Source of the DNA: Gammaproteobacteria bacterium
GTDB taxonomy: Bacteria > Pseudomonadota > Gammaproteobacteria > Natronospirales > DASSBR01
Reading direction: 5' to 3'
Assembly (NCBI GenBank): GCA_035701285.1
Contig: DASSNT010000016.1
Span: 724 to 64,723 of the forward strand
Length of the DNA: 64,000 nt
The position numbers were made by a program, and so were the translations under genes. The number at the start of each line of letters is the position of its first letter. Positions within the stretch are counted from its first letter, which is position 1. This document shows, in pieces, positions 10,368 to 64,000 of the stretch. The notes under the pieces were generated by a model. That model made no database searches, was not told the origin of the DNA, and was given only the letters and a program-made list of their open reading frames with translations.

Positions 10368-10371
10368 AGAG

Positions 10372-10451
10372 CGGGGTTCGGGCGTCGGGATTCGGGGTTC
10401 GGGTGGAGAACTCCTCTTTCCCGATACCCGAACCCCGAATCCCGAGCCCCG
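10372..10451. repeat. Family A palindromic element (G-rich arm / C-rich arm hairpin), copy A1
   Basis: Left arm 'cggggttcgggcgtcgggattcggggttcggg' is the near-perfect reverse complement of right arm 'cccgaaccccgaatcccgagccccg'. About 20-nt loop. Lies between the nuoCD stop and the nuoE start. Confidence 0.85.
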
Positions 10452-10956: not shown

Positions 10957-12278
10957 TGGAGGCGGTGCTGACCAGAAATATCCGTGCCGGCCGCGAGCCG
11001 CTGGACATCGGCGCGTACGAGAAAGCCGGTGGTTACCAGTCGCTGCGCAAGGCGCTCAAACTGGCGCCAGGCGAAATCGTCGAGATGGTCAAGCAATCGA
11101 ACCTGCGCGGGCGCGGTGGCGGCGGCTTTCCGACCGGGATCAAATGGGCGGCCATTCCGCAGGGCGACGATGCCCGCCCGCCGGCTTACCTGCTGGTCAA
11201 CGCCGACGAGATGGAACCGGGCACGTTCAAGGACCGCCTCTTGATGGAGGGCGATCCGCACCAGTGTATCGAAGCCTTCATCATCAGCGCGTATGCGATG
11301 CAGGCGCAGGCGGTATTCATCTTTCTTCGCGCGGCATACCATGAGTCAGCTCGGCGCCTTGCGCGTGCACTGGCCGAAGCCCGCGACAAAGGCTACCTCG
11401 GGCAGAAGATACTCGGCTCCGATTACAGCCTTGACATCGTGCTGCATCGCAGCGCCGGCCGTTACATCTGCGGCGAGGAAACGTCGCTGCTGAACGCAAT
11501 GGAAGGTGTGCGGCCGATTCCACGTGCCAAGCCGCCGCTGCCCCAGGTCGCGGGGCTCTGGGGCCAGCCGACGGTCGTCAACAACGTCGAAACGCTGTGC
11601 AACGTGCCGCACATTGTCGAGCGCGGCGCGGACTGGTTCAACGGCGTCAGCCTGGCCGAGGGCAAGGACGGCGGCACCAAGCTCTACGGCGCGAGCGGCC
11701 GGGTCAATCGGCCGGGTTTGTGGGAGCTGCCGATGGGTACGCCGGCGCGGGAAATCCTCGAGGACTACGCCGGCGGCATGCGCGAAGGCTATTCGCTGCG
11801 CGCGTTTCAGCCCGGCGGCGCGTCGACGCAGTTTGTCGGTGCCGACAAGCTCGACACGCCGATGGACTTCGACTCGATGAGCCAGGCCGGCGCGCGCCTC
11901 GGCACCGGCACGATGATCGTACTCGACGACAAAACATGCCCGATCGGCGCGCTGGCCAATCTGGAACATTTTTTCGCCCAGGAGTCCTGCGGCTGGTGTA
12001 CGCCGTGCCGTGAAGGGCTGCCGTGGACGGAGCGCTTGCTGCTTGGCATAGAAAACGGCGATGGCAGGGCGGAGGACATCGACGTGCTGTCGCTGCACAC
12101 GCGCTTTCTGAGCGGCAAAAATACGTTCTGCGCCCACGCGCCGGGGGCAATGATGCCGCTGGAGAGTGGAATGGCTATATTCCGAGACGAATTCGACGAG
12201 CATATCAAGGCGAAGAGATGCCGCTTTCGGGGTTCGGGATTCGGGGTTCGGGATTCGGCAAGGGAGAAGAACGGATGA
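10956..12278 (+). CDS. nuoF: NADH-quinone oxidoreductase subunit F
   Basis: 'GRGGGGFPTG' FMN site, 'ESCGWCTPCREG' 4Fe-4S motif. The last 16 codons ('RGSGFGVRDSAREKNG') and the stop are read from repeat A2. Confidence 0.93.
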   Translation: MEAVLTRNIRAGREPLDIGAYEKAGGYQSLRKALKLAPGEIVEMVKQSNLRGRGGGGFPTGIKWAAIPQGDDARPPAYLLVNADEMEPGTFKDRLLMEGDPHQCIEAFIISAYAMQAQAVFIFLRAAYHESARRLARALAEARDKGYLGQKILGSDYSLDIVLHRSAGRYICGEETSLLNAMEGVRPIPRAKPPLPQVAGLWGQPTVVNNVETLCNVPHIVERGADWFNGVSLAEGKDGGTKLYGASGRVNRPGLWELPMGTPAREILEDYAGGMREGYSLRAFQPGGASTQFVGADKLDTPMDFDSMSQAGARLGTGTMIVLDDKTCPIGALANLEHFFAQESCGWCTPCREGLPWTERLLLGIENGDGRAEDIDVLSLHTRFLSGKNTFCAHAPGAMMPLESGMAIFRDEFDEHIKAKRCRFRGSGFGVRDSAREKNG

Positions 12279-12388
12279 TAACTCTTTTGCTTATTGTGTT
12301 AGGTACGGCCCGGTGTTGCGTATCTGCTCGGTGCGAGCGTCTTGCCTCTTTGCCCGAGCCCCGAACCCCGAACCCCGGATCCCGATTC
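12228..12388. repeat. Family A element, copy A2 (about 160 bp, inverted G-rich/C-rich termini around an AT-richer centre)
   Basis: Left terminus 'cggggttcgggattcggggttcgggattcgg' (12228-12258), right terminus 'cccgagccccgaaccccgaaccccggatcccgattc' (12352-12388). Spans the nuoF stop and ends 5 nt before the nuoG ATG. Confidence 0.85.
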
Positions 12389-16573: not shown

Positions 16574-16595
16574 GTCGGGTGGCTTCGAATGGCCT

Positions 16596-16696
16596 GCGTC
16601 GCGGTATCGGTTTCCCGGAACGCCGTGAATACATCCCTGTAGGCTCCGGCGGCGACATCCTGTCGCCGACGCTCCGGAAAACCAATCCCCCGACGC
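16596..16696 (+). repeat. Family B palindromic element, copy B1
   Basis: 26-nt core 'cgccgtgaatacatccctgtaggctc' (16621-16646), inner hairpin 'ggcgac-atcct-gtcgcc', outer complementary arms 'gcgtcgcggtatcggtttcccgg' / 'ccggaaaaccaatcccccgacgc'. Confidence 0.85.
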
Positions 16697-16726
16697 ATGC
16701 CTTACGTTGTGGTGGACTTGGGTCCC

Positions 16727-16764
16727 ATCCCCTCTCCCTCAGGGAGAGGGTTAGGGTGAGGGGG
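16727..16764. repeat. Family C hairpin unit, copy C1
   Basis: 'cccctctccctcagggagagggttagggtgagggg'. The same unit is seen at 19749.. and in reverse complement at 62779... Confidence 0.85.
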
Positions 16765-16863
16765 GCACATAAAGGCAGGCCCTTCAATTCCGCTTTACTG
16801 TTTGTAGCTTACATCAAGAGCGGAAGCGGCGACCCTCTTGTAATGGCTGGCGACAACCCGTCA

Positions 16864-16974
16864 GGCGTGTGCCGGGGGAACTATTTTCCAGAGCGTGAGC
16901 AGCAGGACGCTGCGACCGGAGCCTACAGGGATGTATTCACGGCGTTCTGGAAAATAGTTACCGCGGCACGCGCC
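16864..16974 (-). repeat. Family B palindromic element, copy B2 (inverted relative to B1)
   Basis: Reverse complement of the identical 26-nt core at 16919-16944. Own complementary arms 'ggcgtgtgccgggggaactattttccagag' / 'ttctggaaaatagttaccgcggcacgcgcc'. Confidence 0.85.
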
Positions 16975-17003
16975 CCGCGACAACCTGAAAGCCGCCATAG
17001 CCC

Positions 17004-19723: not shown

Positions 19724-19748
19724 TGACGTGCAGACGGAGAACATCTGA

Positions 19749-19845
19749 TCCCCTCTCCCTCAGGGAGAGGGCTAGGGTGAGGGGAGTTGATTTAACCCCT
19801 CATCCCGGCCTTCTCCCTGAGGGAGAAGGAGTAAGAAGAGAAGGG
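19749..19845. repeat. Family C composite hairpin element, copy C2
   Basis: 'cccctctccctcagggagagggctagggtgagggg...cccctcatcccggccttctccctgagggagaagg'. Fills the nuoL-nuoM gap and ends 8 nt before the nuoM ATG. Confidence 0.85.
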
Positions 19846-48580: not shown

Positions 48581-49828
48581 ATGTTCCGACCGTTCGAACT
48601 TTTCGTCGGGCTGCGCTACCTGCGGGCCAAGCGGCGCAATCACTTCATTTCGTTTATTTCGGTGATCTCCGTACTGGGGATTATCGTCGGCGTGATGGCG
48701 CTGATAACGGTGCTGTCCGTCATGAACGGCTTCGATAAGGAGCTGCGTTCGCGCATCCTCGGCTTCGCCTCGCACGTGACGATCAGCGGTTTCGACGGCG
48801 AGCTTGAGGACTGGCAGGACGTGGCCGCCATCGCCAAAAAGAACCCGCACGTGATCGGCCTCGCGCCGTACGTATCCGGTCAGGGCCTGCTGGCCAACGG
48901 CGGCAATGTCAGCGGTGCAATCATTCGCGGCGTGGCACCCGACAAGGAAGAGCAGGTCTCGACGGTGGCGAAAAAGACGGTCGAGGGCAACTTTGAGGCG
49001 CTCAAGCCGGGAAGCTGGGGCATTGTCCTCGGGCGCTACCTGGCGATGAAGCTGGGCGTGGGGGTGGGTGACAAGCTCATTCTGATGGTGCCGCAGGGCA
49101 ACGTCACGGTGGCCGGCCTGATGCCGCGCTTCCGACGATTTCACGTGGTCGGTATCTTCGAAGCCGGCGAATATACCTACGACAGCAGCCTCGCCGAAAT
49201 CAACATCAGCGATGCACGCAAGCTGTTTGACATGAGCTCCGCCGTGACCGGCGTTCGCCTGAAGCTCGACAACCTGTTTCTCGCGCCGGCAGTGTCGCGC
49301 CAGTTGGTGAGGGAATATCGCGGCCAGTATTACGTTCAGGACTGGACCCAGCAGCGCGCCAATTTCTTCCAGGCGATCCAGACCGAGAAGCGCGTGATGT
49401 TCGTGATCCTGTCGCTGATCATCGCTGTCGCGGCTTTCAACATCGTTTCGACGCTGGTAATGGTCGTCAACGACAAGCAGGCGGATATTGCGATTCTGCG
49501 CACGCTGGGCGCCCGGCCCGGCGCGGTGATGCGCGTCTTCATCGTGCAGGGCACGCTGATCGGCATTGTCGGCATCATCATCGGCCTGATTCTGGGCATC
49601 CTGCTGGCGCGGAACATCAACGACATCATGCAGTTCCTGGAGAGCGTATTTCACATCAACCTGCTGCCGGCGGACGTGTACTACATCAGTGATTTGCCGT
49701 CCGACATGCACTGGAGCGACGTGATCAAGATCGGATGCTCCGCGTTCGTGCTGACGCTGTTGTCGACGTTGTATCCGGCGTGGCGCGCGTCCCGGGTGCA
49801 GCCGGCCGAGGCGCTTCGGTATGAATAG
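48581..49828 (+). CDS. lolC: Lipoprotein-releasing system transmembrane subunit (LolC/LolE/LolF family)
   Basis: Start ATG 48581 ('[20 protein letters not shown]'). MacB-like periplasmic domain and FtsX C-terminus. Confidence 0.9.
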
Positions 49829-50516
49829 CGTGACGGTGAACGCGGACGCGCCCGTGATCGAGTGCCGCAATCTGGCGCATCGGTTCGTCGAAGGCGGACT
49901 CGAAGTGCAGGTGTTGCGCGATGTGAATCTGCGTTTGCAGCCGGGCGAGCGGGTGGCAATTGTCGGCGCGTCCGGTTCCGGCAAAAGTACGCTGCTGCAT
50001 TTGCTCGGCGGTCTCGATACTCCGACTTCAGGCGAGGTAAATATCCAGGGCGTCAACCTTGGTCGGCTGAACGGCGCCAAACGCGGTGAACTGCGCAACC
50101 GCGCGATCGGGTTCGTATACCAGTTTCATCATCTGCTGCCTGAATTTACGGCGCTCGAAAATGTTGCGATGCCGTTGCTGATTCGCGGCGTCGTACCGCG
50201 TGACGCTGCGGCCGAGGCGGCCAAGCTGCTGGATCGCGTGGGGCTGGGCGAACGGCTCAAGCACAAGCCGGGCGAACTGTCGGGTGGCGAACGTCAGCGC
50301 GCGGCGGTAGCGCGGGCATTGATCACGCGGCCGGCGTGTTTGCTGGCCGATGAACCGACCGGTAATCTCGATGCGGCATCGGGGAACAATGTTTACGATT
50401 TGATGATTGAGTTGAATAAGGCCATGGGGACCGGGATGGTTGTGGTCACGCATGATCCTGGATTGGCTGAGCGGATGGATACGGTTTATACATTAGCTGA
50501 TGGGGTATTAGCTTAG
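49821..50516 (+). CDS. lolD: Lipoprotein-releasing system ATP-binding protein
   Basis: '[11 protein letters not shown]', 'LSGGERQR', '[11 protein letters not shown]'. 8-nt overlap with lolC. Confidence 0.93.
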
Positions 50517-50520
50517 GTTT

Positions 50521-50797
50521 TGTGCCGCCTGCGGCGGCGAGCTGATTGGGTGCCGGTTTCCGGCCCGGCAGCCGGGTTACTTTCCTTTCGGGGAAAGTAA
50601 CCAAAGCCATTGCTCATGGAGCTTGGTCCAAAGTGCGTCCTGCACTTTGAACTTCCCGAAGATCGGGCGAAAAATGGGGGCCGGAGCAGAACTCGCGCGT
50701 CCCTGCGCTCGGACACTGCTCCTTGTTTCCCCATTTTTCACCCGATCTTCGGCTGCGCTCAAATCGCGGGAAAAGAAGCCGGCCATCGTGGCCGGCT
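50521..50797 (+). repeat. Family D multi-hairpin element (about 280 nt), copy D1
   Basis: Collinear with the reverse complement of 62890-63172. Contains at least 7 hairpins, for example 'gttactttcc-tttcgg-ggaaagtaac' (50576-50601) and the long-range stem 50655-50680 / 50729-50752. Confidence 0.9.
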
Positions 50798-53240: not shown

Positions 53241-53313
53241 GGCGACGGTACGGTGCCTCTGGGTTCGGCATCCTGCCTCACACAGCCCTGAGCGAAGTCA
53301 CCGTACCGCCGCC
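53241..53313 (+). repeat. Family B-related half element, copy B4
   Basis: 'ctctgggttcggcatcctgcctcacacagccctg' matches 62685-62718 exactly. Own arms 'ggcgacggtacggtg' / 'caccgtaccgccgcc'. Lacks the 26-nt 'cgccgtgaatac..' core. Confidence 0.75.
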
Positions 53314-62614: not shown

Positions 62615-62629
62615 TTTCGGGGTTGTCGC

Positions 62630-62742
62630 AGGGGCGGCGGCGCGGTGCCTTCTCCCAGGGACGCCGTGAATACATCCCTGTAGGCTCTGGGTTCGGCATC
62701 CTGCCTCACACAGCCCTGGGAGAAGGCACCGCACCCCCGCCC
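62630..62742 (+). repeat. Family B palindromic element, copy B3
   Basis: Identical 26-nt core at 62662-62687. Perfect arms 'gcggtgccttctcccaggg' / 'ccctgggagaaggcaccgc'. Confidence 0.85.
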
Positions 62743-62778
62743 GATTCGTTGTAGACTCGGTAGGGAGGAGAAATTTAC

Positions 62779-62885
62779 ACCCCTCACCCTAACCCTCTCC
62801 CCGAGGGAGAGGGGATGAGAAGACTACGGGCTGACGGCGAAACTTCTTGCACCTTCTCCCCCAGGGAGAAGGCAGGGATGAAGGG
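62779..62885. repeat. Family C composite hairpin element, copy C3
   Basis: 'cccctcaccctaaccctctccccgagggagagggg...ccttctcccccagggagaaggcagggatgaaggg', related to C1 and C2. Confidence 0.85.
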
Positions 62886-62889
62886 ATAA

Positions 62890-63172
62890 ATTGCCTGCCG
62901 GCCAGGAAGGCCGGCTCCAACCCTGCGATTTGAGCGCAGCCGAAGATCGGGCTGAAAATCGGGGAAACAAGGAACAGTGTCCGAAGCCATGGAGGGCTGA
63001 GTTCTGTTCCGGCCCCGATTTTCAGCCCGATCTTCGGGAAGTCCAAAGTGCAGGGATGCACTTTGGGCCAAGCTCCATGAGCAATGGTTTTGGTGACTTT
63101 TGCCGAAACAAAAGTCACTCGGCCGCCGGGCCGAGACCCGGCACCCAATCAACCCGCCGAAGGCGGATCAAA
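62890..63172 (-). repeat. Family D multi-hairpin element, copy D2 (inverted relative to D1)
   Basis: The reverse complement aligns end to end with 50521-50797. Ends 6 nt from the gspF stop. Confidence 0.9.
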
Positions 63173-63177
63173 ATTTC

Positions 63178-64000
63178 TTAATGCACGAGCGTATTAAGAT
63201 CAAAAATCGGCAGCATAATTGCCAAAACAATAACCAAAACGATCGCCCCCATAATCAAAATCATAGCCGGCTCAAGAACCCCCAACATAGTAGCCAGCAA
63301 CGTCTCAAGCTCCCGCTCCTGATTCTGCGCAGCCCGCTCCAGCATGGTCCGAAGCTGCCCACTGGTCTCACCACTGGCAATCAGATGGATTGTCATCGGC
63401 GGAAACAGCCCGCTGACGGCCAGCGCCCGATTGATCGCCGAACCTTCGCGAACCCGGTTGGCGGCTTCATCGACAGCTTCGCGCATCGGCACATTGGAAA
63501 CCACTTCACCGGCAATCCGCAGCGCTTCCAGCACCGGCACGCCGCTGCCGGCGAGAATACTGAGCGTGCGGGTGAACCGGGAGGTATTGAGGCCGCGCAC
63601 GACGCGCCCGATCAGCGGCAGCTTCAGCAGCAGGCGGTGAAACTGACGCTTCGGCTCGGGACGCTTCAGCCAGAAATAAATGCCGAAGCCGACAACAACG
63701 ATGCCGATCAGCAGGTAGATGCCGTCGGCGCGCAGGAAATCGCTGAGCGCGATCAATGCCCGGGTCAGAAACGGCAGCTCGTGCCCGATGTTGTTGAACA
63801 CCGTCACCACCTGCGGCACGACGTAGGTCAGCAGGAACGCGACGATGATGATCGACATCGCCGTCAGCAGGATCGGGTAGATCATTGCGAGGCCGAGCTT
63901 CTGACGAAGCGCCTGACGGCTTTCGGCGTAATCGGCCAGCCGTTCGAGCACCGCGTCGAGATGACCCGTTTGTTCGCCGGCGGCGACGGTGGCGCGAAAA
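63178..64000 (-). CDS. gspF: Type II secretion system inner-membrane protein F (5' part outside window)
   Basis: The frame stays open to the window edge ('...AAGEQTGHLDAVLERLADYAE'). 'GLFPPMTIHLIASGETSG', C-terminal 'LAIMLPIFDLN'. Confidence 0.9.
   Translation of the reverse strand, partial: FRATVAAGEQTGHLDAVLERLADYAESRQALRQKLGLAMIYPILLTAMSIIIVAFLLTYVVPQVVTVFNNIGHELPFLTRALIALSDFLRADGIYLLIGIVVVGFGIYFWLKRPEPKRQFHRLLLKLPLIGRVVRGLNTSRFTRTLSILAGSGVPVLEALRIAGEVVSNVPMREAVDEAANRVREGSAINRALAVSGLFPPMTIHLIASGETSGQLRTMLERAAQNQERELETLLATMLGVLEPAMILIMGAIVLVIVLAIMLPIFDLNTLVH

Follow-up and report, generated by a model that had tools for sequence, protein, structure and literature searches.

A selected eight-hairpin intergenic repeat abuts lolD and gspF in a clade of uncultured soil Gammaproteobacteria

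Introduction

Structured repeats between genes, among them REP, ERIC, BOX, and bcr1, are widespread, and it is rarely clear whether such a repeat is selfish DNA or a regulatory part of its host. The same question is raised by a 64,000-nucleotide (nt) stretch of a gammaproteobacterial genome (GenBank assembly GCA_035701285.1, contig DASSNT010000016.1, positions 724–64,723 of the forward strand), which carries two inverted copies of a noncoding element of about 280 nt. We refer to the whole stretch as the window and count its positions from its first base. An earlier note on the window had described the two copies as a multi-hairpin element whose differences preserve base pairing and had offered three candidate identities: a new structured RNA family, a nonautonomous IS200/IS605-type derivative retaining hairpin ends or a guide-RNA-like scaffold, and a BIME-like mosaic of REP hairpins. 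Here, we ask what kind of element this is. Our results show that it is a real, nonrandom, selected structured repeat, neither a product of chance nor decaying junk, and that it is known from a narrow clade of uncultured soil Gammaproteobacteria.

Results

Two inverted copies of a hairpin array adjoin gene ends

The two copies align end to end, as the earlier note had claimed, and their best bounds are 50518–50797 on the plus strand (copy 1) and 62897–63173 on the minus strand (copy 2). Their mean column identity is 86% in our alignment, and BLAST reports 83.3% over 281 nt. Three segments of 20, 24, and 15 nt quoted in the earlier note match the window at these two copies alone, against a chance expectation of approximately zero. 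Copy 1 begins 2 nt past the stop codon (TAG, 50514–50516) of lolD, which encodes an ABC transporter ATPase (49821–50516, plus strand; Pfam PF00005), and it ends 57 nt before the start of comEC, a gene that runs in the same direction as lolD and the element. Copy 2 begins 5 nt past the stop codon (TAA, 63178–63180, minus strand) of gspF, the 3′ part of which is present at 63178–63951 on the minus strand and encodes a type II secretion protein F (PF00482). This copy sits between the convergent genes gspF and rluC, with two REP-like units and a 120-nt hairpin repeat after it. The strand of the element is that of its upstream gene in both instances.

Both copies fold far more stably than expected, with predicted free energies of −152.7 kcal/mol (z = −8.1) for copy 1 and −158.5 kcal/mol (z = −9.2) for copy 2, and none of 200 shuffled sequences folded as well. 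The consensus fold of the two copies contains 88 pairs, 8 of which differ on both sides and yet remain paired. The resulting architecture is a linear string of eight near-perfect hairpins, H0 to H7, in a fixed order.

The array opens 6–8 nt from its left end with the GC-rich hairpin H0, GCCGCC-TGC-GGCGGC (50524–50538), whose equivalent in copy 2 (63149–63171, minus strand) has a C(UUCG)G loop. H2 (50575–50602; 63093–63118 on the minus strand in copy 2) is a hairpin of 10–12 bp with a conserved UUUCGG loop, and its two main variants, GTTACTTTCC and GTGACTTTTG, differ at three pairs, all of them fully compensated. The largest unit is H5, a hairpin of about 98 nt at 50655–50752, built from an outer stem of 25 bp, an inner stem of 7 bp, and a hairpin at the tip. 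No change affects its outer 12 bp (CCGAAGATCGGG) in any of the six copies described below, and these 12 bp include a GATC on each arm (50661 and 50744 in copy 1), the two invariant sites lying 83–84 bp apart. In copy 2, H5 spans 62940–63037 on the minus strand, the GATC sites lie at 62945 and 63029, and the two 25-nt arms are 100% complementary. H5 is followed directly by H6 (50753–50769; 62923–62939, minus strand), a small hairpin of invariant sequence, GGCTGCGCTCAAATCGC. The right end of the element is formed by H7, GCCGGCC-N5-GGCCGGC (50778–50796; 62897–62915, minus strand), the stem of which is invariant in all copies. Several segments that the earlier description had taken as single-stranded turn out to be paired in this fold and belong to stems: cccgaagatcggg forms the 5′ side of the 25-bp stem, and ccattgctcatgg folds into a hairpin of its own.

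Orthologous copies occupy both sites in three species

Further copies were sought through the flanking proteins, by retrieving the contigs that encode relatives of ComEC and GspF. The relatives form a small clade with ComEC at 66–86% identity, below which there is a gap to 50% or less. Full sense copies are present between lolD and comEC in two metagenome-assembled genomes (MAGs), genome A (contig L045, 925–1259; ComEC 86% identical) and genome B (L022, 7250–7533; ComEC 78% identical), and the same two MAGs carry full sense copies between gspF and rluC (L052, 8531–8818; L053, 2597–2886). Both sites are thus occupied in three species, namely that of the window and two related MAG species, which gives six full copies with two seen per genome. 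All six begin 1–11 nt after a stop codon, that of lolD or gspF as in the window, and all six are in sense orientation. The H0 stem does not vary among them.

Two further contigs hold reversed copies. L046, whose ComEC is 79% identical by BLASTP and which is nested in the clade of the window and genomes A and B, has a reversed copy in the lolD-comEC spacer that has lost positions 76–235. At the junction, TT(T/A)CGG of the H2 loop is joined to CTTCGG at the end of H5, which identifies the loss as a microhomology deletion rather than a designed "mini" element. In the same lineage, rluC is followed by prfB and not by gspF (L046, 16068–18012), indicating that the second locus has been rearranged there. 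The contig L049, from a basal lineage, begins inside a reversed copy, and this partial copy has GCGCGC/GCGCGC in place of the GCCGCC/GGCGGC of H0. Between it and the comEC start lies a solitary H0-like hairpin, TTTTGTGCCGCTTGCGGCG (L049, 84–103), so the 5′ motif of the element has been duplicated at that place. Empty sites are found in more distant lineages only, with a lolD-comEC spacer of 100 nt in L047 and a gspF-rluC spacer of 132 nt in L055 and L056; in the P0125 lineage, only 34 nt follow gspF.

Differences between copies preserve base pairing

Among the first four full copies, standard pairs filled 98.4% of pair cells, and 14 pairs showed double changes, i.e. changes on both sides. With all six copies, the consensus comprised 98 pairs, and 96.1% of 585 pair cells were standard. 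Double changes were found in 19 of the 98 pairs (32 cells), compared with 1–3 pairs in six register-shifted controls, in which the 3′ partners were slid by 1–3 columns, and none of 500 column shuffles reached the observed covariation values. Of the 11 helices in the consensus structure, 7 contain double changes, and no variation at all is seen in the stems of H0 and H7 or in the outer H5 stem.

These data bear out and, through the four additional copies, strengthen the earlier proposal that the differences between copies keep the hairpins paired. The three compensated pairs that distinguish gttactttcc/ggaaagtaac from gtgacttttg/caaaagtcac are genuine, and so are the compensations in ggagcag versus ggaacag, in gcgc versus agcc, and in the long stem. 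The ccggc/gccgg example does not stand, as it contains one-sided changes of the G-U type only. Nor are the loops nearly identical: in the first four full copies, 25% of unpaired columns were variable versus 20% of paired columns, and the signal lies instead in the fact that stem changes are nearly always compensated. Findings that would have counted against a selected structure are likewise lacking, as the covariation persists with more copies, the copies are few and have no target-site duplications, and their decay is nonrandom.

The element evolves more slowly than synonymous sites

Orthologous copies are 81–89% identical. Four-fold degenerate sites of lolD, comEC, gspF, rluC, msbA, and lpxK in the same genomes are 53–70% identical, where 40% is expected from base composition, and the spacers next to the element are unalignable between genomes. 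The element therefore evolves several-fold more slowly than synonymous sites, and the contrast with both four-fold sites and adjoining spacers indicates that the hairpins are under purifying selection. Copies within one genome are 79–83% identical and thus no closer than orthologues, so concerted evolution within genomes does not account for the conservation. Orthologues also have locus-specific states in common, such as the GGGGG/CCCCC form of H1 in the gspF copies of genomes A and B and states in the mid-stem of H5.

The element is noncoding and has no recognizable promoter

The earlier statement that no plausible open reading frame (ORF) exists is correct. One-base indels between the copies shift every frame, so that no ORF is conserved, and a twelve-frame query (six frames per window copy) found no protein relatives in 5.8 billion clusters; the open sense frame gave no match to 1.84 billion representative proteins. 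A small protein gene was rejected on the same ground of broken frames, and the only ATG-led ORF, which starts from H3, stops early in copy 2.

We found no sigma-70-like promoter ahead of the element and no consistent T-run or terminator after H7. Two other transcriptional or regulatory assignments were tried and discarded: a sigma-54 promoter inside H1, whose −12 element does not fit by eye, and a CsrA-type sponge, for which the five GGA motifs are, by our own estimate, at chance level and lie mostly in stems. The sense strand carries UUCG-type loops and invariant G-U pairs, with 26 G-U cells versus 9 A-C cells.

Searches beyond the clade and tests against known families

In approximately 190 kb of clade DNA, neither nhmmer nor a mismatch search with each module in turn detected further copies or solitary hairpin modules, and a covariance model built on H5 and H6 added no copy in 193 kb. 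Across 185,579 species genomes, an exact 18-mer matched 30 loci, of which 29 were chance matches and only L022 was genuine, although an exact 18-mer is too strict a probe, since three of the six full copies differ within it. Four matches to an exact 20-mer in JGI metagenomes were all due to chance, and the same scan of IMG/VR gave none. The sole blastn match among plasmids, phages, and E. coli genomes covers 44 nt of H2 and its linker in Acinetobacter baumannii (NZ_CP104448.1, 1672425–1672467; L051, 1501–1543), where a single intergenic hairpin, GTTACTTTTCTTTCGGGAAAAGTAAC, is followed by CAAAACCATTG. It is 88.6% identical to H2 and the linker (E = 1e-4), and either a shared ancient module or coincidence could explain it. 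This match and the lone H0-like hairpin of L049 are the only ones outside the known copies.

The whole window gave no match to Rfam at the gathering score; at E values up to 10, only microRNA-like hairpin noise appeared, and no HEARO or IS605-associated Rfam motif matches the element. Terminal inverted repeats were not found, as a local alignment of the first 45 nt with the reverse-complemented last 45 nt scored no higher than shuffled sequence in any of the six full copies, and direct reading of the flanks of these copies and of the partial L046 copy revealed no consistent direct repeat that could be a target-site duplication. Their absence excludes a classical MITE. The element is noncoding, was seen in two copies per genome, and is missing from sites only in the more distant L047 and L055, and breaks in Logan contigs, described below, hint at further copies or variants. 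The left flanks (TTAGG, TAGGA, AGAAG, AGAAA, GAGTG, AATAG, CATCG, and GAAGG), read at a boundary that is uncertain by a few nucleotides, have no tetra- or pentanucleotide in common. The element does share with PATEs one generic trait, hairpins close to both ends in the absence of terminal inverted repeats and target duplications. A Pfam scan of the approximately 50 window ORFs and the gene lists obtained for the relatives' loci contained no transposase, TnpA, TnpB, IscB, or RAYT domain.

Among the identities proposed earlier, the BIME-like mosaic was rejected because the eight hairpins were never found alone in the mismatch search of the clade DNA. The IS200/IS605 derivative or guide-RNA scaffold received generic support only, and the element could conceivably represent a new noncoding RNA family. 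Similarity to ERIC was not detected by blastn in 5,426 E. coli genomes. The element has the traits of ERIC and bcr1 in being intergenic, located at gene 3′ ends, and kept in structure by compensatory change, its transcription being predicted. The conserved secondary structure supported by covariation is a trait of structured noncoding RNAs as well.

Copies bear traces of exchange and insertion

The H2 variant GTTACTTTCC occurs in the lolD copies of the window and genome A and in the gspF copy of genome B, and the gspF copy of genome A has a form of it in which one more pair is compensated (GCTACTTTCC). The variant GTGACTTTTG occurs in the lolD copy of genome B and the gspF copy of the window, the latter of which also has the lolD type of H1. 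This distribution of H1 and H2 variants conflicts with both locus and genome and requires exchange between copies. In addition, about 50 nt of extra, hairpin-rich sequence interrupt the lolD copy of genome A precisely at the H0 loop (L045, approximately 940–990), which suggests that the loops of existing hairpins take up further small palindromic units. Across genomes, six of seven copies have a REP-like unit behind them, within about 10–25 nt.

Ten Logan contigs from different samples (L035–L044), all with an identical LolD, end at positions that match window 50568–50574, and L054, a contig with the GspF of genome B, ends just after H1. These breaks suggest graph branching caused by extra near-identical copies or by strain variants at the hairpins. 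We do not take them as proof of many copies, because the stops are spread over 6 nt from sample to sample and because a REP accounts for a comparable break after gspF in the L049 lineage. Taken together, the Logan contigs L035–L044, L054, and L057–L060 stop at nearly the same base, either just inside the element or just inside a REP after gspF.

Other hairpin repeats and genes of the window

Several other hairpin repeats share the window with the element. Two REP-like families, CCCTCTCCCTCAGGGAGAGGG.TAGGGTGAGGGG and CCCCTCATCCC.GCCTTCTCCCTGAGGGAGAAGG, occupy the nuoI-nuoJ, nuoL-nuoM, and gspF-rluC spacers (16723–16770, 19744–19838, and 62771–62891), and the unit that follows the element after gspF and in L046 belongs to the second of them, CCCCTCATCCC.GCCTTCTCCCTGAGGGAGAAGG. 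A third family is a hairpin of about 120 nt located after comEC (53257–53313), after rluC (62621–62742), and as an inverted pair inside the nuo operon (16585–16706 and 16859–16985). Its arms, at 62632–62660 and 62714–62742, are 29 nt long and 93% complementary, and it is found at orthologous places in L022 (4680–4800), L045 (3703–3834), and L053. Inverted arrays of the heptamer GGGGTTC/GAACCCC form long hairpins between nuoCD and nuoE (10371–10451) and between nuoF and nuoG (12223–12385). Hairpins of the same kind lie in the gspE-gspF spacer of a relative (L057, 3860–4140), and (GGTTAAG)n follows gspF in L055. The approximately 50 ORFs scanned are all housekeeping genes, among them the nuo operon, mutL, miaA, hflX/K/C, purA, pdxJ, mfd, lolCDE, comEC, exbBD, msbA, lpxK, kdsB, rne, rluC, and gspF.

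Discussion

What could such an element do at the ends of lolD and gspF? The explanation we favor, with our confidence in it evenly divided, is a fixed, selected structural intergenic repeat of a low-copy family that acts in cis. The element is probably cotranscribed as a hairpin array in the 3′ untranslated region (UTR). Transcription of the upstream gene would read through into it, since no promoter-like site precedes the element, and the array would then form part of the 3′ UTR or of the intercistronic RNA. There, it could block 3′-to-5′ exonucleases, offer processing sites for RNase III or RNase E, or do both; the perfect 25-bp stem of H5 would be an obvious candidate for such processing. 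In this manner, the array may determine how stable the lolCDE and gsp transcripts are and may uncouple the downstream comEC. We propose a cis-acting array because of the proximity to stop codons, the sense orientation, the lack of a promoter, the UUCG loops and G-U pairs, and the presence of other intercistronic hairpin repeats. The model also draws on the reported behavior of REP/BIME, ERIC, and bcr1 repeats: ERIC and REP are found at gene 3′ ends, are cotranscribed, and alter mRNA stability, and compensatory changes that keep RNA structure are described for bcr1 and for the Borrelia IS605-end stem-loops (PMC3184786). As to its origin, the element was probably a mobile or recombining palindromic element that was later fixed, which would account for the presence of a second locus, for copies in relatives that are reversed or deleted, for empty sites in more distant lineages, and for the mosaic of hairpin variants.

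Several considerations weigh against a role in cis at the RNA level. The comparison comprises six full copies from three species, a small sample. The reversed copies of L046 and L049 lie antisense to lolD and comEC, which a strict 3′-UTR role does not predict, although the central 160 nt are missing from the L046 copy as well. Forward and reverse strands fold about equally well, so that energetics settle neither the strand nor the choice between RNA and single-stranded DNA. The REP units beside the gspF copy are likewise conserved at orthologous positions; conservation alone can therefore not separate a host function from constraint at the level of the repeat family, and family-level constraints on palindromic repeats in this lineage may contribute to what we observe. 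Template switching within a hairpin can mechanically yield compensated palindromes without selection at the RNA level. Finally, the invariant H0, H7, and outer H5 stems suggest sequence-specific recognition and not mere pairing.

Some of the same observations would suit a nonautonomous single-strand hairpin transposon, derived from IS200/IS605 as a PATE or mobilized by a RAYT, that is moved in trans now or was moved recently. The transposase would read the hairpins on single-stranded DNA, and the apparent conservation would reflect reinsertion or gene conversion from master copies. GC-rich hairpins close to both ends without terminal inverted repeats or target duplications fit this proposal, as do the presence of two loci per genome, the inverted copies that L046 and L049 carry in the same spacer, the empty sites of L047 and L055 together with the 34-nt gspF spacer of P0125, and the H1/H2 mosaic that follows neither locus nor genome. 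So do the 50-nt hairpin insert in the H0 loop of L045, the REP unit that nearly always follows the element, and the contig ends at 50568–50574 and after H1 in L054, which are consistent with further copies or variants. We nevertheless consider such a transposon unlikely. The window ORFs and the gene lists obtained for the relatives' loci offer no transposase, TnpB, IscB, or RAYT, the left flanks have no common tetra- or pentanucleotide, and no Rfam family of transposon RNAs matches. Assemblers of the MAGs read through all six copies, and identity within a genome is only 79–83%, so no recent burst has taken place. The shortened L046 copy arose by a microhomology event and is not a "mini" element, and the locus-specific signatures common to orthologues point to long residence at each site.

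The strong covariation in 7 of 11 helices could also come from paralogous genes for a trans-acting structured noncoding RNA of about 270 nt, which would either be released by processing of the upstream mRNA at its 3′ end or be made from a promoter of its own that we failed to recognize. GlmY/GlmZ and RsmY/RsmZ are such pairs of paralogous trans-acting RNAs. A pair of diverged paralogues in each genome, at loci conserved across three species, would suit this proposal, and so would the UUCG-type loops and conserved G-U pairs of the sense strand and the orientation relative to the upstream gene, which is fixed in all six full copies; the invariant CUCAAAUCGC in the H6 loop, ACUUCCC, and CCUUGUUUCCCC would be candidate recognition or seed sites. 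The lack of a promoter-like site and of a consistent terminator after H7 speaks against it. The element is also a linear hairpin string without junctions, pseudoknots, or conserved internal loops, its loops vary as much as its stems, several stems are invariant in sequence, and no Rfam family matches. An essential RNA would hardly be expected to occur in antisense orientation, to suffer an internal deletion, or to be missing at both loci from sister lineages. A trans-acting role is accordingly doubtful in our view, and we are just as reserved about the wider proposal of a new class of large structured RNA (approximately 270 nt) with two paralogous genes, serving either as a trans regulator released from the lolCDE and gsp mRNA 3′ ends or as a domesticated transposon-end scaffold RNA whose protein is encoded elsewhere. 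The invariant stems could instead mark a site that acts as DNA, through cruciform extrusion or through the invariant 13-bp near-palindromes CCCGAAGATCGGG, two per element and each with a GATC, which would respond to Dam methylation or be bound by a dimeric protein. In six copies, the stems of H0 and H7 and the outer 12 bp on either arm of H5 show no change, beyond the needs of pairing; the two GATC sites, 83–84 bp apart, are invariant; and both strands fold equally well. BIMEs, moreover, bind IHF, gyrase, and Pol I (PMC3184786). Nothing in our data, however, points to a binding protein or a Dam system, binding of duplex DNA would not need compensatory change in 19 pairs, and a symmetric site would not require the orientation that all full copies keep relative to the upstream gene. 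A function as DNA thus seems to us very improbable.

If the element is indeed transcribed, it would offer a tractable model of the way in which operon expression is tuned by hairpin arrays at gene ends; should a protein partner exist, the element could point to a new mobile-element or RNA-protein system. The two copies can be traced as orthologues through three species whose synonymous sites are nearly saturated, which makes them an unusually clean natural experiment. The 19 rebuilt stem pairs are direct evidence of long-term selection on structure in a repeat without the defining features of MITEs, REPs, or PATEs, and this evidence comes from a lineage known only from soil metagenomes.

Compared with known systems, the element resembles the large structured RNAs HEARO, OLE, and raiA in size class (approximately 200–600 nt) and in having covariation support from environmental sequences. 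Those RNAs have multistem junctions and conserved unpaired nucleotides, whereas the element is a chain of near-perfect hairpins with variable loops that behaves like a repeat, with an inverted copy, a deleted copy, and empty sites. Hairpins near both ends without inverted terminal repeats or target duplication are found in IS200/IS605-derived PATEs and the Borrelia IS605-end stem-loops as well, but unlike the PATEs the element has no conserved left-flank target, and no parent insertion sequence or TnpA/TnpB was seen in the window or the relatives' loci. Similar to REP/BIME repeats, which are associated with protection of mRNA 3′ ends, it places GC-rich hairpins in intercistronic and convergent-gene spacers, and in the window it is clustered with genuine REP-like units. 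REPs are 20–40 nt long, high in copy number, and arranged singly or in varied mosaics; the hairpins of the element are fixed in order, and none was found alone in 190 kb. With ERIC and the Bacillus bcr1 repeat it has in common that all are intergenic, noncoding, imperfect palindromes in transcription units, often at gene 3′ ends. ERIC and bcr1 form one cruciform of 127–155 nt, in contrast to the eight-hairpin array of about 280 nt, twice as long, which lacks terminal inverted repeats and flanking direct repeats and is seen in two copies per genome. The element belongs to no described family and is closest in kind to the structured intergenic repeats ERIC, bcr1, and REP, from which it is set apart by the absence of transposon hallmarks, its length of about 280 nt, its very low copy number, the order of its eight hairpins, and its retention at orthologous sites.

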